64,000 bases of DNA from Mobula hypostoma (Eukaryota): positions 10,292,001 through 10,356,000 of the forward strand of contig NC_086097.1 in the NCBI RefSeq assembly GCF_963921235.1, written 5' to 3'. The stretch's first letter is position 1; each line of letters starts with the position of its first letter. Made by a program: the position numbers and the translations under genes. Positions 4,663-60,150 of this stretch are shown piece by piece. A model generated the notes under the pieces. The model did no database searches. It saw only the letters and a program-made list of their open reading frames with translations, and was not told the origin of the DNA.

Positions 4663-6710
4663 ATTGTGTGGATTTCTGCATAGGTACGTTCCAATGAGAC
4701 AGGAAAGTTATGGTAGGGTACAGGAACCATGGTGTACAAAGGCTGTAATAAATCTAGTCAAGAAGAAAAGAAAAGCTTACAAAAAGTTCAGAGAGCTAGG
4801 TAATGTTAGAGATCTAGAAGATTATAAGGCTAACAGGAAGGAGCTTAAGAAGGAAATTAGGAGAGCCAGGAGGGGCCATGAGAAGGCCTTGGCAGGCAGG
4901 ATTAAGGAAAACCCCAAGGCATTCTGCAAGTATGTGAAGAGCAAGAGGATAAGATGTGAAAGAATAGGACCTATCAAATGTGACAGTGGGAAAGCGTGTA
5001 TGGAACCGGAGGAAATGAGATACTTAATAAATACTTTACTTCAGCATTCACTATGGAAAAGGATCTTGGTGACTGTAGTGCTGATTTGCAGCGGACTGAA
5101 AAGCTTGAGCATGTAGACATTAAGAAAGAGGATGTGCTGGAGCTTTTGGAAAGCATAAAGTTGAATAAGTCGCCGGGACCGGATGAGATGTACCCCAAGC
5201 TACTGTGGGAGACGAGGGAGAAGATTGCTGAGCCTCTGGTGATGAACTTTGAATCATCAATGGGGACAGGAGAGGTTCCAGAGGATTGGAGGGTTGCGCA
5301 TGTTGTTCCTTTATTCAAGAAAGGGAGTAGAGGTAGCCCAGGAAATTATAGACCAGTGAGTCTTACCTCAGTGGTTGGTAAGTTGATGGAGAAGATCCTG
5401 AGAGCCCGGACTTATGAACATTTGGAGAGGTATAATATGATTAGGAATAGTCAGCATGGCTTTGTCAAGGTCAGGTCGTGCCTTACGAGCCTGATTGCAT
5501 TTTTTGAGAATGTGACTAAACACATTAATGAAGGAAGAGCAGTTGATGCAGTGTATATGGATTTCAGCAAGGCATTTGATAAGGTACCCCATACAAGGCT
5601 TATGAGAAAGTAAGGAGGCATGGGATCCAAGGGGACATTGCTTTGTGAATCCAGAAATGGCTTGCCCACAGAAGGCAAAGAGTGGTTGTAGACGGGGCAT
5701 ATTCTGCATGGAGATTGGTGACCAGTGGTATGCCTCAGGGATCTGTTCTGGGACTCTTACTCTTCGTGATTTTTATAAATGACCTGGATGAGGAAGTGGA
5801 GGGATGGGTTAGTAAGTTTGCTGATGACACCAAGGTTGGAGGTAGTGTGGAGGACTGTCAGAGGTTACAGCAGGACATTGATAGGATGCAAAACCGGGCT
5901 GAGAAGTGGCAGATGGAGTTCAACCCAGTTAAGTGCGAAGTGGTTCATTTTGGCAGGTCAAATATGATGGCAGAATATAGTATTAATCGTAAGTCTCTTG
6001 GCAGTGTGGAGGATCAGAGGGAGCTTGGGGTCCGAGTCCATAGGACACTCAAAGCAGCTGCGCAGGTTGACTCTGTGGTTAAGAAGGCATACAGTGTATT
6101 GACCTTTATTAATCATGGTATTGAATTTTGGAGCTGAGAGAATTTTGCAGCTATATAGGACCCTGGTCCCTGCACCTTGAGTACTATGCTCAGTTCTGGT
6201 CTCCTCTCTACAGAAAGAATGTGGAAGTCATAGAAAGGGTGCAGAGGAGATTTACAAGGATGTTTCCCGGATTGGGAAGCATGCTTTATGAAAACAAGTT
6301 GAGTGAACTCGACCTTTTCTCCTTGGAGTGGAGATGGATGAGAGGTGACCTGATAGAGGTGTATAAGATGATGAGAGGCATTGATCGTGTGGATAGTCAG
6401 AGGCTTTTTCCCAGGGCTGAAATGGTTGCCACAAGAGGACACACGTTTAAGGTGCTAGGGTGTAGGTGCAGAGGAGATGTCAGGGGCACGTTTTTTACTC
6501 AGAAAGCGGTGAGTTCGTGGAATGGGCTGCTGGCAACAGTGGTGGGGGCGGATACGATAGTGTCTTTTAAGAGACTTTTCGATAGGTACATGGAGCTTAG
6601 AAAAATAGAGGTCTATGGGTAATTACTAGTAATTGCTAAGGTAGGGACATGTTCGGCACAACTTTGTGAGCCAAAGAGCCTGTATTGTGCTGTAGGTTTT
6701 CTATGTTTCT
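4663..6710 (+). mobile_element. CR1/HER1-like LINE, 5'-truncated
   Basis: ORFs 4664-5116, 4996-5613, 5682-6137, 6128-6622 (KSPGPDEMYP, NYRPVSLTS, MDFSKAFDKVPH, PQGSVLG, FADD); TTCTATGTTTCT tail; AACAC at 4658-4662 and 6711-6715 as TSD. Confidence 0.95.
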
Positions 6711-12352: not shown

Positions 12353-14064
12353 CTGCGATATTCAAGCTTGTTTAATGTCATTTCCAGTACATAAGTATAA
12401 AGGAGAATAGAATAATTGTTACTCCAGATCCATACAACACAAAGAACACAATGAGATAAAGAGCACAATAATAAAAAACACAATTTTAAATACATACATA
12501 GATTCATTGTATGTCCATATACCAGTACACTTGCAAACCTGTGTAAATGTTTTGACAATAAATGCATTTGAAACACTTCTTACTGATATCTGATCTTTTT
12601 CGAAATATGCTGTACACTCTGGCTCTTGGACTCAGCAACAACGTTGATAAGGTTTGCCTGTTAAATGGATCCAGTTCTGAATTTAAGCCAAGCCACTTGC
12701 TTCAATTATACATTTGGGAAAAAAAGAAGCTGTCTCTGAATGGCAGGGCTCTGTCTGATTATGGTAAAATGAAAATTGTTCCAAATAGTTTCTGTGGAGC
12801 ACTTATAATTTGATATGCTTTGCAAGAGCTCCTTAAGTACATGGTCTGTAGTGAGGCTGCAAAATAACCATGCCTCTTGCCATCAGTCACTCACTCATTC
12901 CCTGCTATGCTTAAGCTGCCACTGTAATTGAATATTCCATTTATACCAATTTTAAAACTTGTTTTCCAAGGTGACACCTTAAATCATTACGCTCCGCTGC
13001 CAATTCTCTTGAAAGACCGTATCCTTAAATCCCATCCATCTTGTGATTATTCAGCTTCTGTCAGTCTGTCAATTAAAATTGTCAGATCGCACTGCCAGTA
13101 ATCTTTTTATTTTGCAATGTGTTGAAGGTGCTGGAGCTTTTTGTCAGATTTATGGTAAAACTTATGGGTATCACTTTATCCAATGCGCTCCTTATCATCA
13201 TCACGCTGAGCCGTGTTGTATGACATAGGCATCATGATCTTTCCATGACCATGATTTCTCTTGGCAATATTTTTCTACAGAAGTGGCTTGCCATTGCTTT
13301 CTTCTGGACGGTGTCTTTACAAGATAGATGGCCTCAGCTATTATCAATACTGTTCAGAGATTGTCTGCTTGGCATCAGTGGTCACGTAACCAGGACCTGT
13401 GATATGCACCAGCTGCTCACATGGCCATCCACCATCTGCTCCCATAGCTTCGCATGACTGTAATTGGTGGGGCTAAGCAGGTGCTACACCTTGTCCAAGG
13501 GTGACCTGCAGACTAGCGGAGGGAAAGAGTTCCTTACACCTCCTTTGGTAAAAATGCATGTCCACTCTGCCACCCACTCCTCATTAGTAAAAATATCACT
13601 AAACAATTCTTTACTTTAGGCAACCTATACAGTGCTCTTTAACCAGTATGAAATTAGATTAAATAATTACAATGATTTGCACAAGATTCCTTTCAGAGAC
13701 CAAGAAGAAAGGATAAAGAAAGTGCTTATATTTATAAAATACACAAAATGCTGGAGGAAATCAACAGGTCAGGCAGTATCTATGGAACTGAATGAACGGT
13801 CAACATTTTGGTCTGAAAGCCTTCATTGGAACTGTTTATTCCTTTCTAAGTTTGCTGCCTGACCTGCCAAGTTCCTATAGCATTTTTTGTATATTGCTTT
13901 GGATTTTCAGCATCCACAGAATTTTCCTTTTAAAATTATATGTTTAAACATAGATAATGTAATTTTCTAGAGGAGGTAAGTTTAGTTTGCTGAAACCAAA
14001 GAAAATAAAGCAGATTATAATTGCCTTCAATCATCAATTAGTCGTAGAGTGTTCAAGACATCGA

Positions 14065-30480: not shown

Positions 30481-33400
30481 AGAAACATAGAAAAGCTACA
30501 GCACAATACAGGCCCTTCGGCCCACCATGCTGTGCCGAACATGTCCTTACCTTAGAAATTACCTAGGGTTACACATAGCCCGTTATTTTTCTAAGCTCCA
30601 TGTACCCATCCAGGAATCTCTTAAAAGACCCTATCGTATCTGCTTCCACCACCGTCGCCGGCAGCCCATTCCACGCACTCACCACTCTCGGCGTAAAAAA
30701 CTTACGCCTGACATCTCCTCTGTACCTTCTATCAAGCACCTTAAAACTATGCCCTCTCATGCTAGTCATTTCAGCCCTGGGAAAAAGCCACTGACTATTC
30801 ACGCGATCAATGCCTCTCCTCATCTTATACACACTATCCAGTCACTTCTCATCCTCCGTCGCTCCAAGGAGAAAAGGCCAAGTTCACTCAATCTATTCTC
30901 ATAAGGCATGCTCACCAATCCAGGCAACATCCTTGTAAATCTCCTCTGCACCCTTTCTATAGTTTCCACATCCTTCCTGTAGTGAGGTAACCAGAACTGA
31001 GTACAGTACTCCAAGTGGGGTCTGACCAGGGTCCTATATAATTGTAACATTACCTCTCACCTCGTAAACTCAATCCCACGATTGATGAAGGCCAATACAC
31101 CGCATGCCTTCTTAACCACAGAGACAACCTGCTCAGCAGCTTTGAGTGTCCTATGACCTCTGATCCCAAGATCCCTCTGATCCTCCATACTGCCAGGAGT
31201 CTTACCATTAATACTATATTCTGCCATCATATTTGACCTACCAAAATGAACCACTTCACACTTATCTGGGTTGAATTCCATCAACCACTTCCCAGCCCAG
31301 TTTTGCATCCTATCGATGTCCCACTATAACCTCCGACAGCCCTCCACTCTATCCACAACACCCCCAACCTTTGTGTTATCAGCAAATTTACTAACCCATC
31401 CCTCCACTTCCACATCCAGGTCATTTATAAAAATCATGAAGAGAAGGGGTCCCAGAACAGATCCCTGAAGCACACCACTGGTCACCAACCTCCATGCAGT
31501 ATATGGCCCATCTACAACTACTGTTTGCCTTCTGTTGGCAAGTCAGTTCTGGATCCACAAAGCAAGGTCCCCTTGGATCCCATGCCTCCTTACTTTCTCA
31601 ATAAGCCTTGCTTGGGGTATCTTATCAAATGCCTTGCTGAAATCCATACACACTATATATCCTGCTCTACCTTCATCAATGTGTTTCATCACGTCCTCAA
31701 AAATTTCAATCAGGCTCCTAAGGCACGACCTGCTTTTGACAAAGCCATGCTGACTACTCCTAATCATATTATGCCTCTCCAAATGTTCATAAATCCTGCC
31801 TCTCAGGATCTTTTCCATCAACTTACTAACCACTGAAGTAAGACTCACTGGTCTATAATTTCCTGGTCTATCTCTATTCCCTTTCTTGAATCAGGGAACA
31901 ACATCTGCAACCCTCCAATCCTCCAGAACCTCTCCCATCCCCTTTGGTGATGCAAAGATCTTTGCCAGAGGCTCAGCAATCTCCTTCCTCACCTCCCACA
32001 GTATTCTGTGGTACATATAGTCCGGTCCGGAGACTTATCCAACTTGATGCTTTCCAATTTTTGGATTTTCAAAAGGCTTTTGATAAGGTCCCACACAGGA
32101 GATTAGTGTGCAAACTTAAAGCACACGGTATTGGGGGTAAGGTATTGGTGTGGGTGGAGAATTGGTTAGCAGACAGGAAGCAAAGAGTGGGAATAAACGG
32201 GACCTTTTCAGAATGGCAGGCAGTGACTAGTGGGGTACCGCAAGGCTCAGTGCTGGGACCCCAGTTGTTTACAATATATATTAATGACTTGGATGAGGGA
32301 ATTAAATGCAGCATCTCCAAGTTTGCGGATGACACGAAGCTGGGTGGCAGTGTTAGCAGTGAGGAGGATGCTAAGAGGATGCAGGGTGACTTGGATAGGT
32401 TGGGTGAGTGGGCAAACTCATGGCAGATGCAATTTAATGTGGCTAAATGTGAAGTTATCCACTTTGGTGGCAAAAATAGGAAAGCAGATTATTATCTGAA
32501 TGGTGGCCGATTAGGAAAAGGGGAGGTGCAACGGGACCTGGGTGTCATTATACACCAGTCATTGAAAGTAGGCATGCAGGTACAGCAGGCGGTGAAAAAG
32601 GCGAATGGTATGCTGGCATTTATAGCGAGAGGATTCGAGTACAGGAGCAGGGAGGTACTACTGCAGTTGTACAAGGCCTTGGTGAGACCACACCTGGAGT
32701 ATTGTGTGCAGTTTTGGTCCCCTAATCTGAGGAAAGACATCTTTGCCATAGAGGGAGTACAAAGAAGGTTCACCAGATTGATTCCTGGGATGGCAGGTCT
32801 TTCATATGAAGAAAGACTGGATGAACTGGGCTTGTACTCGTTGGAATTTAGAAGATTGAGGGGGGATCTGATTGAAACGTATAAGATCCTAAAGGGATTG
32901 GACAGGCTAGATGCGGGAAGATTGTTCCCGATGTTGGGGAGGTCCAGAACGAGGGGTCACAGTTTGAGGATAGAGGGGAAGCCTTTTAGGACCGAGATTA
33001 GGAAAAACTTCTTCACACAGAGGGTGGTGAATCTGTGGAATTCTCTGCCACAGCAAACTGTTGAGGCCAGTTCATTGGCTATGTTTAAGAGGGAGTTAGA
33101 TATGGCCCTTGTGGCTACAGGGGTCAAGGGGTATGGAGGGAAGGCTGGGTTCTGAGTTGGATGATCAGCCATGATCATAATAAATGGCGGTGCAGGCTCG
33201 AAGGGCCGAATGGCCTACTCCTGCACCTATTTTCTATGTTTCTATGTTTCTAAAAGTTCCAATACATCCTCTTTCTTAATGTCCATCTGCCCAAGCTTTT
33301 CAATCCGCTGTAAGTCATCCCTACAGTTGCCAAGATCCTTTTCCACAGTGAATGTTGAAGCAAAGATTTTATTAAGTACCTCAGCTATCTCCTCCAGTTC

Positions 33401-34835: not shown

Positions 34836-34892
34836 CTGCCGGGGACAAGAGGCATTTGTAGACAGAGTTCCTCTTGTCTTAACCTACTACTC

Positions 34893-35890
34893 CATGAGCC
34901 TCTGCATCCAACACATCACTCTCCACAACTTCCGCCATCTCCAAAGGGATCCTACCACCAAGAACATCTTTAACTAACGCCCCACCCCCCAACTTTCTGC
35001 TTTCCGCATGGATCGCTCCCTCCATGATTCTTTGTCCATTTGTCCCTGTCAACTAATCTCCCTCCTGGAAATTATCCTGCAAGGCACCAAAATGCTACAC
35101 CTGCCCCTCCATCTCCATTCAGGGCCCCCAGACAGTCCTTCCAGGTGAGGCAAAACATCCCTTGTGAATATGTTGAGATTGTCTGTTGTATCTGGTGTTT
35201 CTGATGTGGTGTCTACATGGGTGAGACTCATCACTAATTGGGGGATCGCTTTGTCAAGCACCACTGTTCCATCTGCCAAAAGCAGAATTACCTGGTGGCT
35301 GAATATTTTAATTCCATTTCCCATTCCCATTCTGACATGTTAGTCTATGGCTTCCTCTTTTGCCACGATGAGGCTACCCTCAGGGTGGAGTAGCAACACC
35401 TCATATTCCATCTGGGTAGCCTCCAACCCGATGGCATGAATATCAATTTCTCCTTCTGGTAATTGTTTTTTCCCTCCCCCCTCCCTTTTCTTCTATTTCT
35501 CACTCTGGCCTCATCACCTATCCATCATTTCCCTCTGGATACCCTGCATCTTCCCTTTCTCCCATGGTCCACTCTCCTCTCCTATCAGATTCCTTCTTCT
35601 CCAGCCCTTTACCCTTCCCACCTGCACAGCCTCACCTATAACTTTCTAGCCACCCTCCTTTCCCTTCCCTCACCTTTTTACTCTGACATCTCCAGCCCTT
35701 TACCTTTCCTACCCATCTGGCTTCACATATCACATTCTAGCTATCCTCCTTCCCCTGCCCACACCTTTTTATCCTGGTGTCTTCCCCTTCTTAGTCCCAA
35801 TGAAGCTTAAAATGTCAACTGTTAATTCATGTCTATAGATGCTGCCTGGCCTGTTGAGTTCCTCCAGCATTTTGTGTGTGTGTGTGTGTG
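34893..35890 (+). mobile_element. Decayed Penelope-like fragment (GIY-YIG region and tail)
   Basis: Homologous to 41660-42647 (CAGTCCTTCCAGGTGAGGCAA, GGTAGCCTCCAACC). Confidence 0.8.
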
Positions 35891-38679
35891 CTGCTTTATA
35901 GATTACAGTCTGGGTGCCATCTTTTCAGTCATATACCATTCACTGTCTAAGTGATTAAAATCAGAAACCAGAAAGGGTTCAGTTGTTCAATACTTCAGAT
36001 TAATATCAGAATTTATACAGTATAGAAGCTGAAATCCTTACTCTTCACAGATATCCATGAAACATAAAAAACCCTAAAGAATGAATGGTAGAAAAATCCT
36101 CCCCAGAGCCTCCCACCCCCTCCCACATATAAACAGTAGCAAAAAGCATCAGCCCTCCCACTCCCACTCCCTCCACTTGTTCCAGAAAACCATCCACCAT
36201 ACAAGTAATAGCAAAGCTCCCAAGGACCATAATCTAGAGTCAATCGAAAACCTACTGTCCAGGCAACACTCTGACATCTCAGACAGGCTCCCTATCTCAC
36301 TAGAGCGGGAGAAAGAGAGACCTTACTCCTATCACAGTGAGAGGGGAGGCCATCAGCTTGCTGTTTCGTGGTTACAATCTGCCATGTCACTTCAATGAGT
36401 CCGCCTTACTCCCCAACTCGAGGTCCAATAGGTTCTCACTCACCATCAAGAGAGAAAGCAAGAGAGAGAGAATGCAGGGGCCTTCCATCAGTTGCGCACA
36501 CCACCCGCTGTCTTGATGTTTCAATCTCTGACGCTGCTTCAGTCGACAACATCGGTGAGGAATTGAGTCATCCACAGGCCCACTTTCCACTTTGAGGGAT
36601 AGAGTGGGTGATCTGTAAGCTACTCCAATGTGATTATTTGAAAATCCATTTAGGTTTCTAATACACTTCAAACTCATAAGATAGGGTATTGTTAGAATCA
36701 GAGAATGTGCTTCAGGTTTTGTTCTTTAACGGAAAACCATGGCTAGGGTGGGGGCAGGGAAAAATAGTAGTTAGTGTAAAGTTAATACAGTGCCAGTGTT
36801 CACTGATTGGAGTTCAAATCCTACCACTGCCTGTAAGAAGTTTATACGTTGTATCAGTGATTACATGGGTTTCCTCCAGGTGCTCTGGTTTCCTCCTACA
36901 TTCCAAAGATGCACAGTTAAGGTTAATAAGTTGTGGCATACTATGTTTGTGCTGGAAGCATGGTGACACTTGCAGGCTGCCCAGAGCTGTGCATTTAATA
37001 TATCAGTAATATTTGAACAATACTGTGAGCATGTTATTTGATTGAGCATTTTTTGTTGCTTAAATGATTCATTATGGTTTTATATATGAAGAATCTGAAT
37101 TACATATGTCATCACTCCACCACATCATATGTGCGTACTTTGCTTAAAGCAAAACTAAAATGTACACAAATTATTCCCAGCTCAGTGTTTTCCTGTCAAT
37201 TAGTTTTATGTTTTGGAGTTACAAAACATAGAAGTGGTGACAAAGAGGCTTTAAGTGAACATGAGATGATTACCTACTTGTTAAAAATACAGCAAGATGT
37301 TTGAGTTTAGAAAAAAACATAGTGAGAAATGGTTGAGTAAAAAAAACAGCGCAGTATACCCTTCTTCAGAAAAGCACATGGTCAAGCTTTAAAGAAAAGG
37401 CAGAAAATGGACAAATTCGCAGATTCATAAACGGTGAGTAACAGGTGACAATAATCATTTTTTAAAAAGCTGAAATGGCCAACTACATCACAAAGATTGA
37501 CGCATTTCACAAGAGATAACTGGCTCATGTACACTGCTCTAATTCAACAGTGTTTTGAAGCAAGTGAAATAGCCAGTGAGAAATGAGTACCAGTTCTGCT
37601 GAGTCCATTGGATTTAAAGCCTTACAGTTTGCTTAGACACTTGACTGCTCAAATCAGATTATCATTGCTGATCTTATGAGAAATATCTAGAACTGAAACC
37701 ATTGTTGATTGCAGAATGCTTTAGGTTTCATAAGTAGAATCAAAAGGAAGGGGAGACCACTTCGGGATATGTGGCTGAATTGAAAAGATTGTCTGAGCGT
37801 TGTCAGTTCAGTGATGGCCTAGATGCACTGAGAGATTGTTTAGTTTGTGGAATCTCACAAAAAAAGCATTCAAAAACGGCGCCAACTGAAGCACAACTTA
37901 CATTTAAAAGAGAAGTTAAAATTGCTGTTTCAATGGAAACTGGAGACAGAGATAAAATTAAGTTGCAGTCAGGAATGAAAGGGAGCATGAACAAAATTAC
38001 TACATCTAAACAGAAGTTGGTCAGGCCAAATGAATTGTGTTACCGTTGTGGCAGGGGCTCAGAAACAAAAACCAATGCAGGGTTTAAAGGCAAACTTGTA
38101 TAAAATGCAACAAATACAAAGAGCTTTTCAGGCAGACTAAAATAAATGGACTCTACAGGGAAGAGAAAAAGCTAAAAAGTCAAGTTACAGTTTCAACAAG
38201 AGCTCTAATCTGCATGCTGTTGATTAAAAAAAACATGATAATGATGAGAGTGACACAGGACTGGGTACACTTGAGACTTACATTGTGAAAACTAACAAGA
38301 GACAAGCAATATGGCGTACATCAGAAGTGAACAGCAAATTGTTTAAAATGGAACTGGACACTGGCTCGGCTATTTCGGTTATTCCACAAAATGAGTTTTA
38401 ATGGCATTTCACAGATATGGAACTGAAGGTTGCAGATATCCAATGAAGAACTGATACTGGGGAAAGATAACTCCTGTGGGAATGACATCCATAACAGTGA
38501 AATACAGCAACCAACAAGTCTGCTTGGGCTCGCCTGTAAAAACAGGAGGATCAGCATTGTGGGGCTGTGATTGGCTGAGACAACTACAACTTGATTGGAG
38601 AGGTACCCACCAGTTACATGCTACATCCCCTGAAATAGAGTTAACTGAAAGTGAGTTACTGGATGACGCCACAACTGTC

Positions 38680-40220: not shown

Positions 40221-40904
40221 TTACTACACTGTGACTGTCTATATAGTAGTTATATAGTGTTATATAGTATATCGTATACATAGCATATGTAGATCAATAG
40301 AGATGCATTCTCTATTGAGAAGGAGTTTATAGCTAAGCTGGGAGGAGTGTTGTGTATTTAATGTCAGTAATATTGTGGGTATGTTGTTTGTTTGAGCATG
40401 CTTTGTTTAAATGATTCATTATGGTTATATGTAGTAAGTACTTGAGCAGCATATGTCATCATAACTGCATCATACATATTCACCTCGCTTAAAGTAAAAC
40501 TGAGAACGTACATGAGTTCTTCTCAGTTCAGTGTTTTCCTTTTGATTAGTGATTTTTTTCAGATTTTGCAGTTACAAAACATAAACCCAGCACAATCCAT
40601 GTTGATTTGATGTGATGCATTTCATTATGTTTTGATGTTTCGATGTGCATATGACAAATAAAAATATTCGGAAAGTCACTGAAGTGGTAAGAGTGCTTTA
40701 TTTTAGTTTCTCCGAATGCAGGAAGTTTCAGATTTGGCCTTACTTGTGAGATTAATATATTTCAATGGCAGGTCCAGTGAGAGTTAATTTATGTTCTGCA
40801 CATTCTTAACACCCCTTTTCCAAAGAAAAGGTAAACACCATTTTTTCATATATATTTTCTCTGCTCTCTGCGAAACCCTAAACGTGTCCACATACTTAAA
40901 ATGT

Positions 40905-42647
40905 CCAGTCCCTGTATACTTCCATCCCCCATCAGGAAGGTCTCAAAGCTCTACGCTTCTTTTTGGATTCCAGACCCAATCAGTTCCCCTCTACCACCAC
41001 TCTGTTCCGTCTAGCGGAATTTGTCCTTACTCTTAATAATTTCTCCTTTGGCTCCTCCCACTTCCTCCAAACTAAAGGTGTAGCTATGGGCACCCGTATG
41101 GGCCCTAGCTATGCCTGCCTTTTTGATGGCTTTGTGGAACAATCTATGTTCCGTGCCTATTCTGGTATCTGTCCCCCACTTTTCCTTCGCTACATCGACG
41201 ACTGCATTGGCGCTGCTTCCTGCATGCATGCAGAGCTCGTTGAATTTATTAACTTTGCCTCCAACTTTCACCCTGCCCTCAAGTTTACCTGGTCCATTTC
41301 CGACACCTCCCTCCCCTTTCTAGATCTTTCTGTCTCTGTCTCTGGAGACAGCTTATCCATTGATGTCTACTATAAGCCTACTGACTCTCACAGTATCTGG
41401 ACTATTCCTCTTCTCACCCTGTCTCTTGCAAAAACGCCATCCCCTTCTCGCAATTCCTCCGTCTCCGCCACATCTGTTCTCAGGATGAGGATTTTCATTC
41501 TAGGACGAGGGAGATGTCTTCCTTTTTTAAAGAAAGGGGCTTCCCTTCCTCCACTATCAACTCTGCTCTTAAACACATCTCTCCCATTTCACGTACATCT
41601 GCTCTCACTCCATCCTCCCGCCACTCCACTACGAATAGGGTTCCCCTGGTCCTCACCTACCACCCCACCAGCCTCCGGGTCCAACATATTATTCTCCGTA
41701 ACTTCCGCCACCTCCTACGGAATCCCACCACTAAGCACATCTTTCCCTCCCCACCCCTCTGCATTCCGCAGGGATCGCTTCCTACGCGACTCCCTTGTCC
41801 ATTCGTCCCCCCCATCCCTCCCCACTGATCTCCCTCCTGGCACTTATCTGTGTAAGCGGAACAAGTGCTACACATGCCCTTACACTTCCTCCCTTACCAC
41901 CATTCAGGGCCCCAAACAGTCCTTCCAAGTGAGGCAACACTTCACCTGTGAGTCGGCTGGGGTGATATACTGCATCCGGTGCTCCTGATGTGGCCTTTTA
42001 TATATTGGCGAGACCCGACGCAGACTGGGAGACCGCTTTGCTGAACACCTACGCTCTGTCCGCCAGAGAAAGCAGGATCTTCCAGTGGCCACACATTTTA
42101 GTTCCACATCCCATTCCCATTCTGACGTGTCTATCCATGGCCTCCTCTACTGTAAAGATGAAGCCACACTCAGGTTGGAGGAACAACACCTTATATTCCG
42201 TCTGGGTAGCCTCCAACCTGTTGGCATGAACATCGACTTCTCTGACTTCCGCTAATGCCCCACCTCCCCCTCATACCCCATCTGTTACTTATTTTTATAC
42301 ACACATTCTTTCTCTCACTCTCCTTTTTCTCCATCTGTCCCTCTGAATATACCTCTTGCCCATCCTTTGGGTCCCTCCCCCGCTTGTCTTTCTTCCCGGA
42401 CCTCCTATCCCATGATCCTCTCGTATCCCTTTTGCCTATCACCTGTCCAGCTCTCGGCTCTATCCCTCTCCCTCCTGTCTTCTCCTATCATTTTGGATCT
42501 CCCCCTCCCCCTCCAACTTTCAAATCCCTTACTCACTCTTCCTTCAGTTAGTCCTGACGAAGGGTCTCGGCCTGAAACGTCGACTGCACCTCTTCCTAGA
42601 GATGCTGCCTGGCCTGCTGCGTTCACCAGCAACTTTCATGTGTGTTG
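40905..42647 (+). mobile_element. Penelope-like retroelement, 5'-truncated (RT + GIY-YIG endonuclease)
   Basis: VQSLYTSIP, GVAMGTRMGPSYA, RYIDD, FLDLSV, GVIYCIRCS*CGLLYIGETRRRLGDRFAEH; two frameshifts and one TGA; 17-bp direct repeat CCACATACTTAAAATGT (40888-40904, 42648-42664). Confidence 0.93.
42549..42586 (+). ncRNA. Minimal type I hammerhead ribozyme motif
   Basis: TAGTC / CTGACGA / AGG-gtctcgg-CCT / GAAA / CGTC / GACTG: complete core, stems I and II, palindromic ACGT in place of stem III. Confidence 0.75.
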
Positions 42648-42931
42648 CCACATACTTAAAATGTTGTTTTAAGTGCTTTGCACATTTCTTCCTGTAACCA
42701 TTAATTAGAATTCTAATGATTGTTTGGTGTAAGCAATTTGATTCAATTTCTATTGCATTAACCATGTATATTTTATATCCACAATAGAATGGACATGCAT
42801 TAAAAGTCATTATCATTTACAGATACTTATCTTGGCAGGATGACTATCTTAAACATACCAGTTAAACATTAGATTGAAGCCAATTAAATCTGGTCGAAGA
42901 AAAACTCCCGTTAAGGGAGGCAACTGCTAAA

Positions 42932-52542: not shown

Positions 52543-54020
52543 GACCATAAGACCATAAGACATAGGAGCAGAATTAGGCTATTTGGCCCATGAGGTCTGG
52601 TTTGCCATTTAGTCATAGCTGAACCTTTTTCCCTCCTCAGCCTTCTCACCATAAGCTTTGATGCCATGTCAAAGAACTATCAAGCTCTGCCTTAAATACA
52701 TCCAAACACATGGCCTCCGCAGCTGTCTGTGGTAATAAATTCCACAAATTTATTGGATAGGTTGGGTGAGTGGGCAAGTTCATGGCAGATGCAATTTAAT
52801 GTGGATAAATGTGAAGTTATCCACTTTGGTGGCAAAAATAGGAAAACAGATTATTATCTGAATGGTGGCCGATTAGGAAAAGGGGAGGTGCAACGAGACC
52901 TGGGTGTCATTATACACCAGTCATTGAAAGTGGGCATGCAGGTACAGCAGGCGGTGAAAAAGGCGAATGGTATGCTGGCATTTATAGCGAGAGGATTCGA
53001 GTACAGGAGCAGGGAGGTACTACTGCAGTTGTACAAGGCCTTGGTGAGACCACACCTGGAGTATTGTGTGCAGTTTTGGTCCCCTAATCTGAGGAAAGAC
53101 ATCCTTGCCATAGAGGGAGTACAAAGAAGGTTCACCAGATTGATTCCTGGGATGGCAGGACTTTCATATGAAGAAAAACTGGATGAACTGGGCTTGTACT
53201 CGTTGGAATTTAGAAGATTGAGGGGGGATCTGATTGAAACTTATAAAAACCTAAAGGGATTGGACAGGCTAGATGCAGGAAGATTGTTCCCGATGTTGGG
53301 GAAGTCCAGAACAAGGGGTCACAGTTTGAGGATAAAGGGGAAGCCTTTTAGGACCGAGATTAGGAAAAACTTCTTCACACAGAGAGTGGTGAATCTGTGG
53401 AATTCTCTGCCACAGGAAACAGTTGAGGCCAGTTCATTGGCTATATTTAAGAGGGAGTTAGATATGGCCCTTGTGGCTACGGGGATCAGGGGGTATGGAG
53501 GGAAGGCTGGGGCGGGGTTCTGAGTTGGATGATAAGCCATGATCATAATAAATGGCGGTGCAGGCTCGAAGGGCCGAATGGCCTACTCCTGCACCTATTT
53601 TCTATGTTTTTATGTTTATAAATTTACCACCGTTTGGCTAAAGAAACTTCTCTGCATCTCTGTATTAAAAGGACACCCCTCTATCCTGAGTCTGTACCCT
53701 CTTGCACTAAACTCACCCACGATGGGAAACATCCTTTCCACATCTACTGTCTAGGCTATTCAATGTACAAAAAGTTTCAGTGAGATCCCTCTCATCCTTC
53801 TAAATTCCAGCGAGTACAGACCCAGGGCCATCAAATGTCCTCATATGATAACCCTTTTATTCCTGGATTCATCCTTGTGAACCTCCTCTGAACTCTTTCC
53901 AATGCCAGCACATCTTTTCTTAGATAAGGACCCAAAACTGTTCACAATACTCAAGGTACAGCCTCACTGGAGCCTTATAAAGCCTCAACATCACATCCCT
54001 GCTCTTGTATTCTAGACGTC
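52543..54020 (-). mobile_element. Older CR1 3' fragment hosting a young CR1
   Basis: (AGACCATA)n tail in reverse; host rejoins as CCAC AAATTTA CCACC. Confidence 0.8.
52753..53619 (+). mobile_element. Young CR1, 5'-truncated, near-identical to 32390-33251
   Basis: Stop-free RT C-terminus to 53523; TSD AAATTTA (52746-52752, 53620-53626). Confidence 0.95.
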
Positions 54021-55957
54021 TTGAAACCAATAAATAATAAGGTGCATTTACATCGTAAGTTAAAAAGTAAATGGTATAACACTACTTGTGCTTCATTCAA
54101 AGTGTGACTTTGAGAAACTATTAGACTACAATAAAATCTAATCCTTTTCACTCATATCACTGACAGAAATAAATCAAATATCCTTACCCAGTATTTTTTT
54201 TATTTATTGAGATACAGTGCGTGGTGGGCCTTTTCAGCCTTCGAGCCATTCTGCCCAGCACACTTGCATTTAACTGTAGCCTAATCATGGGACATTTTAC
54301 CACGGGCAATTAACCTACCAACCAGTGTGTCTTTAGACTGTGAGAGGAAACCAGAACACCCAGGAAAAGCCTAAGTGGTCATGGGGAGAATGCACCACCT
54401 CCTTAGCGACAGCAATGGGAATGGTACCCCGGACAGCTGTACTGTAGAGTGTTGGGTTAACCACTACGCTACTGTGAATATGGCTTCCAGGCTATCAGTG
54501 TGGTAAAATCTTGGCTGCTCTCTAAAACTGGCACTCCATTCAAAGAGAATATAAGGCTGAGCTTTAAATCTTCACGTTGCCAGAATTGTCCAGATTCCAG
54601 GAGCTAACGTATCATGGAAACTTATCTTCAGGATGTGAGTGACATTGGTAAGGTTGTGCTTGTTCTTCCTCACCACTTAACTTCAGGAAGGTACTTTTTT
54701 TTTATTTCCCCCAGTAATTGCTATACATTGATGAGTTACAGACTGGATACATTTTACTAGATTCAATTACTGCAGCTTGGCCCTGGAGTAAGGAACAGGC
54801 CGGAGCCAGGTATGGATTGCAAGTTTTCTTTCCTGAGAAGAATTAGTGAACATTTTAAAACATTCAAGTTGCTTCCAAGGGCCTCTTTATCTGATGCCAA
54901 CCTTTAAATTATTATAATTAAGTTTAGTTTCACAATGAAATTTGATCTTATGACTCCCAAGCTATTATACAGTGCTACAACCCTGACTTTACAGCGAAAC
55001 CCAACCAAAGAAAATTTCCAAGCACAGTCCCATTTCTGTTAAACAACACTAGAGAGAAATCAGGAACATGAGATATTGTAGATTTCTTTGCTTCATCCAG
55101 GCTTAGGGCCAGTGATAACTTGTTAAAGTGCTTTCTCTCCAACTGTCCGTGATACAATACAGCCCAAGCTATGAGCCTGGGATCCGTTAGACTTCATGAT
55201 TCAATTCTACAACTTGCTTTCTATCCAGTCAGTTCAAATTTTCAAGTTAAATTCTTCAAAACAGTATCTAAACTGGGCACATTGCAAGAAAGTACCACAG
55301 CTGGTTTTCCAGGCGCATGTGGTGACCCAGCCAATCCTACAGAACCAGATTTATTTTATTTTATCTAGCAATATAGTATGGAATAGGCCCTTCCAGCCTT
55401 TCGAGCCATGCCACACCAGAATCCCACAAACTCCAATTAACCCTAACCTAATCACAGGGCAATTTACCATGACAATTAGGCAACCCAGTATGTTTTTGGA
55501 CTGTGGGAGGAAACCAAAGCACTCTAAGAAAACTCAAGCATTCCACAGGGAGGAGGAACAGAAAACCCTTAAGGAACGGTGATGAGATTGAACTCATTAT
55601 TATCATTTATTATCAAAGTATATATACACTACACAATCTTCAGATTCCTCTCCTTACAGGTAGCCATAAAGCCAGAAACCCAAAAGAACCCATTAAAAAG
55701 ATCTCATTGAAACTGGATAGAATGGATGTGGAGAGGATGTTTCCTATGGTGAGGGAGTCTAGGACCAGAGTGCACAGCCTCAGAATAGAGGGGTTGGTCA
55801 TTTAGAACAGAGATGAGAAGCAATTTCTTTAGCCAAAGGGTGGTGAATCTGTGGATTTCAATGCCACAGACAGCTGTGGAGGCCACGTCATTTGGTATAT
55901 TTAAAGCAGAGGTTGGTAGGTTCTTGCTTAGTCAGGGTTTTAAAGGTAATGAGGAGA

Positions 55958-57442
55958 TGTCACTCTCTACAGGTGAGGTGCCGGAGGATTGGAGAGTGGC
56001 TCATATTGTTCCGTTGTTTAAAAAAGGATCGAAAAGTAATCCGGGAAATTATAGGCCGGTGAGTTTAACGTCAGTAGTAGGTAAGTTATTGGAGGGAGTA
56101 CTAAGAGACAGAATCCACAAGCATTTGGATAGACAGGGGATTATTAGGGAGAGTCAACATGGCTTTGTGCGTGGTAGGTCATGTTTGACCAATCTGTTGG
56201 AGTTTTTTGAGGAGGTTACCAGAAAAGTGGATGAAGGGAAGGCAGTGGATATTGTCTACATGGACTTCAGTAAGGCCTTTGACAAGGTCCCGCATGGGAG
56301 GTTAGTTAGGAAAATTCAGTCGCTAGGTATACATGGAGAGGTGATAAATTGGATTAGACATTGGCTCGATGGAGAAGCCAGAGAGTGGTGGTAGAGAATT
56401 GCTTCTCTGAGTGGAGGCCTGTGACTAGAGGTGTGCCACAGGGATAAGTGCTGGGTCCATTGTTATTTGTCATCTATATCAATGATCTGGATGATAATGT
56501 GGTAAATTGGATCAGCAAGTTTGCTGATGATACAGAGATTGGAGGTGTAGTAGACAGTGAGGAAGGTTTTCAGAGCCTGCAGAGGGACTTGGACCAGCTG
56601 GAAAAATGGGCTGAAAAATGGCAGATGGAGTTTAATACTGACAAGTCTGAGGTATTGCACGTTGGAAGGACAAACCAACGAAGAACATACAGGGTTAATG
56701 GTAAGGCACTGAGGAGTGCAGTGGAACAGAGGGATCTGGGAATACAGATACAAAATTCCCTAAAAGTGTCGTCACAGGTAGATAGGGTCGTAAAGAGAGC
56801 TTTTGGTACATTGGCCTTTATTAATCAAAGTATTGAGTATAAGAGCTGGAATGTTATGATGAGGTTGTATAAGGCATTGGTGAGGCCAAATCTGGAGTAT
56901 TGTGTTCAGTTTTGGTCACCAAATTACAAGAAGGATATAAATAAGGTTGAAAGAGTGCAGAGAAGGTTTACAAGGATGTTGCCAGGACTTGAGAAACTCA
57001 GTTACAGAGAAAGGTTGACTAGGTTGGGACTTTATTCCCTGGAGCGTAGAAGAATGAGGGGAGATTTGATAGAGGTATATAAAATTATGATGGATATAGA
57101 TAGAGTGAATACAAGCAGGCTTTTTCCACTGAGGCAAGGGGAGAAAAAAACCAGAGGACATGGGTTAAGGGTGAGGGGGGAAAAGTTTAAAGGGAACATT
57201 AGGGGGGGCTTCTTCACACAGAGAGTGGCGGAAGTATGGAATGAGCTGCCAGACGAGGTGGTAAATGCGGGTTCTTTTTTAACATTTAAGAATAAATTGG
57301 ACAGATACATGGATGGAAGGTGTATGGAGGGATATGGTCCGTGTGCAGGTCAGTGGGACTAGGCAGAAAATGGTTCGGCACAGCCAAGAAGGGCCAAAGG
57401 GCCTGTTTCTGTGCTGTAGTTTCTATGGTACTATGGTTCTAT
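55958..57442 (+). mobile_element. CR1 LINE, 5'-truncated, nested in an older + strand CR1 tail (about 55707-57540)
   Basis: ORFs 55813-56394 and 56448-57362 (NYRPVSLTS, DFSKAFDKVPH, FADD); (TTCTATGG)n tail; GGAGA repeated at 55953-55957 and 57443-57447. Confidence 0.93.
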
Positions 57443-57664: not shown

Positions 57665-58060
57665 CAGTTGTGGAGGAAAATCAGTGGAAATTAGTAGATC
57701 ACTTTTGCACTGTCCACCACAAAAGGCACAATCTCCCAGAGGCCACCCATTTTGATTCACCTTCCTATTCCCATGCCAACACGTTTCTCATGGCTTCCAC
57801 TACAGCCACAACGAGGCCAAACTCAAGTTGGAGAAGCAACAGTTTATATCCTGTCTTGGTATCCTGCAACCTGAAGGTATGCACATCAATTTCTCTAACT
57901 TCCAGTAAGTTAGCAACCCTCCCTCCCTCTTCTTGTCCCTTTCTTTTTCTCATTCTAGTTACACTACTGTTCCTTCTCTTCTCATAACCTGTCCCTCACC
58001 TCCATCTGGTGCCCCTACCCCCTTCCTTTCTTTCATGGTCCACTGTCCTCTCCTATCAGA
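57665..58060 (+). mobile_element. Decayed Penelope-like fragment
   Basis: DHFCTVH...ATHFDS resembles the GIY-YIG C-terminal region at 42030-42250. Confidence 0.6.
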
Positions 58061-59224: not shown

Positions 59225-60150
59225 CTTCCTCTTGCTTTCTGCAGGGATCACTCCTTTCACAATGCCATTGACCTTTGGGTGAGGTGAGGCAACACTTCAC
59301 CCGCGAATCTGCTGGGGTTCTCTTTTGTGTCCAATGCTCCCGGATGCAGTCTCCTCCACATTGGTGAGACTCATTGTAAATTGGAGAACACTTCATCGAG
59401 CACCTCCGCACCATCTACCACAAACGGGACTTCCTAAAGGCCAAACATTTTAATTCCATTTCCCTTTCCCGTTCTGACACGTTGATCCATGGCCTCCTCT
59501 TATGCCAAGATGAGACCACCCTCAGGGTGGAGGAGCAGCACCTCATATTCTGTCTGGGTACCCTCCAATTGAAAGGTATGATTATACCTCTATTTTCCAC
59601 TCTGTCCTTTACCACACTCACCTGCTTCTCATACCCGCAGGATCCCCTCTTCCTTCCCTTTCTCCTATGGTCCACTCTCCTCTCCTGTCAGATTCTTTCT
59701 CCTCCCGGCTGGCTTCACCGATCACCTTCCCGCTAGCCTCTCTCCACTTCACCCCCACCTTTTATTCTGCACCTTGCTCCTTCCTTCTCAGTTCTGAAGA
59801 ACAGTTTCAGTTTGAAATGTCAACTTATGTTCTAATTTATATATCTATTTTTATGGGGTTATGGTCATAAATATGTAACTTTTTAAATATCTATTATTTT
59901 TGTTTTTCTGCTTTTTTTAATCAATTCAACATACTTATATTCACTTATAGTAATTTATTTGCTTATTTATTTTTCTTTCTCTGTTATCATGTATCGCATT
60001 GAACTGCTGCTGCTGTTAACAAAAATTCACAACACATGCTGGTGATAATAAACCTGATTCTGATTTCTATACATGCTGCCTGATCTACTGAATTCCTCCA
60101 GCATCTTATGTATGTTGCTCTGGATTTCCAGCCTCTGAAGAATTTCTTGT
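59225..60150 (+). mobile_element. Decayed Penelope-like fragment with hammerhead-like block, split by a Rex-type tail
   Basis: IHGLLLCQDETTLRVEEQHLIFCLGTLQ; AGTT CTGAAGA...GAAA TGTC AACT at 59790-59825. Confidence 0.75.

Follow-up and report, generated by a model that had tools for sequence, protein, structure and literature searches.

A predicted minimal hammerhead ribozyme in the pseudo-LTR of a truncated Penelope-like element from the ray Mobula hypostoma

The DNA analysed here (the window) comprises 64,000 nucleotides of Mobula hypostoma (assembly GCF_963921235.1, contig NC_086097.1, positions 10,292,001 to 10,356,000, forward strand) and holds a 5'-truncated, probably Neptune-type Penelope-like element (PLE) at about 40905-42647 on the + strand. 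The element is bounded by a 17-bp target-site duplication (TSD), identified as the longest word common to both junction regions, with its left copy at 40888-40904 and its right copy at 42648-42664 (both +). These are its only two occurrences in the window; they are identical at 17/17 letters, and 12 of the 17 letters are A or T. Because the end of the TSD overlaps the reading frame, the 5' junction can be placed only to within a few bases. Translations, tblastn and motif searches delineated an ORF remnant (40905-42255, +) containing the end of the reverse transcriptase (RT), the thumb, a Cys linker and a GIY-YIG endonuclease (EN). The ORF carries frameshifts near 41394 and 41759 and an in-frame TGA at 41986-41988, and ends with a TAA at 42253-42255. 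The remainder of the element, delimited by sequence and by the depth of public sequencing runs, is a 3' UTR or pseudo-LTR (pLTR; 42256-42647, +) that is pyrimidine-rich on the + strand.

An RT remnant followed by a C-terminal GIY-YIG domain with CCHH is the layout of an EN+ PLE. Alignment with 17 homologues placed the GIY-YIG motif (VIY...YIG), an internal CxxC and a downstream H...H (together CCHH) at 41962-42120 (+). The best of 255 protein homologues were labelled Mobula and Hypanus (85-89% identity), followed by sharks and then by invertebrate elements; homologues carry PF00078 and some of them PF01541, and a Pfam search with four short frame pieces of the ORF remnant alone gave no match. 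The translation also contains a CX4CxxC zinc-finger-like linker of the Neptune/Nematis type at 41851-41877 (+). A CX2-5CxxC linker between RT and EN is described for Neptune and Nematis and as absent from Penelope/Poseidon (PMC8557442), and by these definitions its presence excludes the Penelope/Poseidon clade. From the linker and reports on host clades, the element likely belongs to Neptune, which is favoured over Nematis only because the PLE clades reported from vertebrates are Neptune and Poseidon (bioRxiv 10.64898/2026.07.22.740005).

The original prediction placed a minimal hammerhead ribozyme in the tail of this element, at 42549-42586 (+), and re-reading the sequence found every letter of the motif where it had been reported. 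Stem I, recovered in the sequence, by descriptor and by folding, pairs TAGTC (42549-42553) with GACTG (42582-42586). The core from C3 to A9 reads CTGACGA (42554-42560), and the GAAA box (42574-42577) is followed by C (42578) and GTC (42579-42581), so that the palindrome ACGU (A15.1-C-G-U16.1) falls at 42577-42580, C17 is 42581 and cleavage is predicted directly 3' of C17 (all +). The motif thus has the type I core boxes C3-U4-G5-A6-N7-G8-A9, G12-A13-A14-A15.1 and U16.1-H17. Stem I consists of five pairs, the outermost being U-G, with pair probabilities of 0.55-0.98 in a fold of the 38-nt motif, and gives a type I closure; 15.2-16.2 are palindromic and the motif has no monomeric helix III. C3 lies 298 nt after the ORF stop and the predicted cut 66 nt before the 3' TSD, leaving a 66-nt tail (42582-42647, +) whose extent is given by the runs and the TSD. 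In folds, the last bases of the element (42627-42647) can form a 5-bp hairpin beside an overlapping one, a candidate tail structure for the start of reverse transcription.

The motif was then assessed against chance. A full descriptor, composed of the core, stem I of at least 3 bp, stem II of at least 3 bp and palindromic 15.2/16.2, matched the window at this motif alone and gave no match in 100 length-matched first-order Markov controls. The bare core pattern alone was not above chance, with 9 matches in the 64-kb window vs 13.98 expected. A search with covariance models was negative: no Rfam hammerhead family was matched at E<=5 over the whole window or at E<=10 over 42450-42700. Rfam matches to PrrB_RsmZ, MIR6140 and others scored far below their gathering scores and were discarded; the weak MIR6140 hairpin match arises from two decayed family tails in inverted arrangement at 13722-13909. 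The motif fits the published consensus for minimal hammerhead ribozymes (min-HHRs), CUGANGAH-G...C-GAAAN-palindrome-NUH with a U-rich 5' flank, given in the supplement to PMC4209133, which counts in favour of a min-HHR. These data support the view that the 3' terminal repeat of this PLE holds a minimal type I hammerhead motif without monomeric stem III, as known from PMC4209133.

The structure of stem II required revision. It had been drawn as AGG (42561-42563) paired with CCT (42571-42573) around the 7-nt loop GTCTCGG (42564-42570); this register, though it can be drawn, is probably wrong. Folds, runs and relatives point instead to a model in which A42561 is unpaired after A9 and is followed by a 4-bp helix, GGGU/GCCU (42562-42565/42570-42573, +), with a CUCG loop (42566-42569). 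In the 38-nt fold, RNAfold pairs G42562-U42565 with G42570-U42573 at probabilities of 0.87-0.97, compared with about 0.02 for AGG/CCT. In three public runs, a C at position 42573 makes up 19.1, 28.7 and 21.2% of the summed depth; it suits the G-led register (-5.1 kcal/mol) and disrupts the A-U pair of the A-led one; the G-led register is therefore the only one compatible with both alleles. The revised register is preferred because RNAfold, the C allele and all 11 motif matches at the related loci described below agree.

With stem II in this register, the closing pair 10.1-11.1 is G-U in this copy and G-C in a minority of depth. As U at 42573 is the majority letter in the close subfamily (~71-81% of depth), the G-U pair is not private decay of this copy. 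A majority U at 11.1, vs the conserved C, counts against the min-HHR reading, as the published consensus has G10.1-C11.1 at more than 80% conservation (PMC4209133). Across 44 min-HHR rows in the supplement to that paper, 42 carry an additional nucleotide after A9; 34 close with G-C, 6 with G-U, 3 with A-U and 1 with U-A (our own count). In the literature searched for activity of a G10.1-U11.1 pair, we found no mention of U11.1. A MAFFT alignment of six motifs strayed from the structure and was left out of the pair counts.

Additional copies of the motif came from a protein-alignment scan of prokaryotic genome contigs, in which 8 of 81 candidates were confirmed as PLE loci (L004-L011). These look to be stretches of eukaryotic DNA binned into two metagenome-assembled genomes, probably host contamination of records with bacterial titles, and they fall into three sequence families. 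A strict motif scan found matches in 5 of the 8 loci, and a scan relaxed to U4 or C4 found 11 matches covering all 8. In every one of the 11, A9 is followed by one additional nucleotide, the pair 10.1-11.1 is G-C and the stem I and stem II sequences are different, which counts in favour of a min-HHR; none allows the nucleotide after A9 to pair with 11.1. Eight matches are in repeats of protein-bearing elements (3' of the ORF in L004, L005, L006 and L008-L011; within an inverted repeat of L007); three are in neighbouring DNA (one in L004, two in L009). Since the core is kept while stems I and II differ between families, these loci provide independent structural support, from few independent lineages. 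The tail 3' of the predicted cut is 66 nt in the ray copy and 57 nt in L006 and L010, lengths resembling the PLE tails described in PMC11167929.

Two of these loci groups have features of their own. In one PLE family C replaces U4 in 5/5 copies found by the relaxed scan (L004 2615, L005 2062, L008 1991 and L009 4119 on the + strand; L007 2640 on the - strand), with the stems and the extra A kept, a natural variant of the core. In L011 (2540-2690), telomeric-type repeats in reverse complement lie some 50 nt after the motif, close to where the contig ends, and the RT match stops without an endonuclease match; L011 thereby resembles the telomere-associated endonuclease-less PLEs described in PMC8557442. 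DNA-pattern scans of viral and metagenome sequences (L001-L003; 1, 2 and 0 matches) showed no element similarity beyond the pattern and were set aside as chance, and a protein scan of viral contigs confirmed 0 of 16 candidate stretches as PLE relatives.

Within the window, 10 matches to the tail were found, of which 8 span the motif region in alignment, and only the copy at 42549-42586 keeps the whole motif, in agreement with its earlier description as the most intact copy. It is plausible that it is also the youngest in the window, as had been proposed, given the 17/17 identity of the TSD. Diverged pieces of the same PLE family, with 71-74% identity over the ORF end and decayed tails, lie at 34861-35900, 57707-57903 and 59284-60131. 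Other RT remnants were found at 4984-5610, 31890-33152, 52696-53520 and 55789-57359 (RVT_1 in 4 of 10 pieces scanned); 32391-33254 and 52753-53622 are 96.3% identical, so that the window also holds a young family belonging to a different retroelement class.

Variation across the family was analysed in public sequencing runs aligned to 42380-42720 at 80% likeness, with data from three (X1, X5 and X9) of 24 listed; X1 and X5 were guessed to be DNA and X9 to be RNA. Summed depth over the motif exceeded that of the unique flank ~1.5 million-fold in X1 and ~0.6 million-fold in X5, values that are not copy numbers and that indicate a very abundant family. Depth collapses after ~42648 in all three runs, and the tail is covered as deeply as the motif. 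Loose ends cluster at 42550-42552, 42585-42586 and 42648, where sister subfamilies depart; the departures at the two motif borders count in favour of a min-HHR. Agreement with the loose-end consensus before 42550 is low (0.39-0.45) and both motif borders are partly due to 2-nt indels, which counts against. Among the loose ends listed there was no pile-up at the predicted cut, contig ends being unable to reveal RNA ends. At low depth, joints jump back ~35 nt within 42550-42587 in X1, X5 and X9 (for example 42584 to 42550, in 3 contigs of X1 and 1 of X9). These could be head-to-tail duplications placing two ribozyme motifs side by side, either as rare real tandems or as assembly artefacts.

Core-box positions showed no non-CpG variant at or above 5% in the three runs, and all listed differences inside the motif are CpG transitions except that at 42573. 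Outside CpGs, 1 of the 38 motif positions is variable vs 15 of 187 in the flanks, a difference that is not significant (Fisher p 0.21). In the DNA-guessed runs, CpG decay is 8.6-12.7% at 15.2, 16.2, 17 and 1.1 and 9.1-11.2% in loop II. The core CpGs therefore decay like those of loop II and most genomic copies show no visible selection, which counts against the min-HHR reading; selection on the core as judged by CpG decay was rejected, there being no difference from the loop II control. In the same runs C>T at N7, a free position, is raised (15-16%) and G>A at G8 lowered (5.9-6.5%), a weak hint of selection.

The RNA-guessed run X9 differs from the other two in several respects. Eight differences reach at least 5% in X9 while staying below 3% in both DNA-guessed runs, and every one is an A>G change on the + strand, in a stretch that has only 33 A but 73 T. 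They lie in 42462-42600 and affect 0 of 8 motif adenosines vs 8 of 25 outside the motif (p 0.08). The pattern is suggestive of A-to-I editing of sense transcripts, X9 being RNA by guess; both edited Penelope repeats of lizard and hyper-editing in the elephant shark have been reported (PMC5625713). CpG decay in X9 is 2-4 times lower than in the DNA-guessed runs. As the ratios are equally reduced in loop II (0.23, 0.35) and at core positions (0.28-0.56), the drop reflects younger copies and not selection on catalysis.

The closest known system is the metazoan PLE min-HHR (Cervera and De la Pena, 2014; PMC4209133), which has been reported from the Xena, Poseidon and Neptune elements of fish as well as from coelacanth, Xenopus and reptiles. 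Common to it and the ray motif are a type I topology, the boxes CUGANGA and GAAA, a nucleotide left unpaired between 9 and 10.1, palindromic 15.2-16.2 without a loop III, a stem I that is short, a U-rich 5' flank, a position in terminal repeats and a predominance of solitary truncated copies. It differs in its stem II (4 bp vs 5-8 bp in many rows) and in position 11.1, which is mostly U in the ray subfamily and U in 6 of the 44 rows. A palindromic, very short stem III and a dimer model are also features of the small PLE hammerheads cleaving as dimers of Lunse, Weinberg and Breaker, compared here by their description in a review (PMC6765202). The anole element Poseidon_Ac (PAc; Frangieh et al., 2024; PMC11167929) likewise has a pLTR hammerhead, a tail marking the 3' end of insertions and a target that, like the ray TSD, is AT-rich. 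PAc, however, belongs to the Penelope/Poseidon clade and has no Cys linker, and its ORF starts inside the ribozyme motif; for the ray family, comparison of the tail translation with 120 homologue proteins gave 3 weak matches at chance level for such a start. Type I hammerheads related to those of PLE pLTRs are found in non-LTR retrozymes as well, reported in the one chondrichthyan sampled (bioRxiv 10.64898/2026.07.22.740005); retrozymes are non-coding tandem hammerhead units, whereas the ray copy is a single motif on an RT-EN remnant and so falls outside that class.

Taken together, these data make it very probable that the motif is a family-encoded min-HHR in the pLTR of a batoid Neptune-type Penelope-like retrotransposon, one that would cut RNA in intact source elements. 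From known PLE biology, an intact source element would be transcribed as pLTR-ORF-pLTR or as a tandem, and the ACGU palindromes of two motifs would pair with each other, giving a double hammerhead. Cleavage after C17 would probably be slow and aided by the protein of the element. Reverse transcription would start in the tail 3' of the cut site, such that the inserted DNA keeps the whole motif and ~66 nt. Since the inserted DNA extends 66 nt beyond the predicted cut, the RNA it was copied from was either uncut there, or rejoined or circular. The copy at 42549-42586 itself is most likely an inert, dead-on-arrival passenger, because it has a single motif, no cis partner and a broken ORF; the second (5') pLTR is missing from this truncated copy.

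Several observations weigh against unaided cutting. Nearest-neighbour energies, which leave out core tertiary contacts, are -11.5 kcal/mol for the double hammerhead, -22.0 for two monomers and -30.3 for the best cofold, and the natural upstream sequence is predicted to sequester the core (stem probability 0.001); both count against the min-HHR reading, and by such models the active form would not be favoured unaided. The upstream hairpin was considered as a designed core-masking switch and rejected as unproven, since 13% of 200 shuffled upstream sequences mask likewise. Published min-HHRs show no cutting as monomers and weak cutting as dimers, even in cis (PMC4209133). The PAc ribozyme cut in vitro only with the element protein and was dispensable for insertion, and PAc RNA-seq gave no reads starting or ending at the ribozyme site (PMC11167929).

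It is also possible, though unlikely, that the motif is a hammerhead by descent that no longer cuts in this subfamily and is kept as a pLTR signal (a folded or sequence signal for protein binding, RT start or promoter) or as a mere passenger of the repeat. The prevalence of U at 11.1 (~71-81% of depth), the predicted sequestration of the core and the equal coverage of motif and post-motif tail would all be expected of such a relic; moreover, ribozyme mutants left in vitro insertion of the anole element unaffected (PMC11167929), and the idea that HHRs may simply parasitise PLEs has been raised (PMC8557442). Against loss of cutting, G10.1-U11.1 also appears in 6 of the 44 published rows (PMC4209133), and three EN-bearing families whose stems differ all retain the full set of core letters, the palindrome and the two stems.

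A bolder proposal takes the ray family to be so abundant, sense-transcribed and intact and unedited in its core that solitary copies cut cellular transcripts through trans partners or the element protein, G10.1-U11.1 being a tuned, slower variant; we regard this as very improbable. Extremely improbable, in our estimation, is the related view that lone copies of an abundant, transcribed family, by pairing in trans, cleave transcripts of the host or from read-through and so act as a genome-wide RNA-processing signal. Motif depth 5-6 orders above the unique flank in the two DNA-guessed runs (not a copy number), the 2-4 times lower CpG decay of the motif in X9, the exclusively sense-strand A>G differences there (8/8) and their absence from motif adenosines (0/8 vs 8/25 outside) would all fit such cutting. 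Yet the decay is reduced equally in loop II and core, as in younger copies, the editing gap has a p of 0.08 and X9 is RNA by guess; a 4-bp intermolecular helix is weak, and published min-HHR dimers are poor cutters even in cis (PMC4209133). If trans-cutting were true, it would be a ribozyme-based layer of RNA processing at very many loci in a vertebrate. A chance look-alike of the hammerhead core is largely refuted: no Rfam hammerhead was matched, the bare core is common and the fold z-score is only -1.24, but the full descriptor occurs in 0/100 controls, the location is that known for PLE hammerheads, and distant relatives keep the core while changing the stems.

A family-encoded min-HHR is thus the reading we retain, and the motif is real, was correctly recognised and is ordinary: its class has already been described, including in fish Neptune elements, and its function is predicted. 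The 44 min-HHR rows include no cartilaginous fish, and the searched supplement text of PMC4209133 names no shark, skate, Callorhinchus or Leucoraja; in the literature searched we found no paper joining hammerhead or ribozyme, Penelope, and shark or ray. A PLE hammerhead from cartilaginous fish may therefore be unreported in that literature, in which one preprint includes chondrichthyan retrozymes. As a single dead copy of a known motif class, the locus matters little. Its value is as test material for possible cutting in vivo by the minimal hammerheads of metazoan PLEs (PMC4209133; PMC11167929; PMC8557442): an abundant, apparently transcribed vertebrate family that carries two natural alleles at 11.1 would be expected to give a strong signal in a cyclic-phosphate RNA-end experiment.
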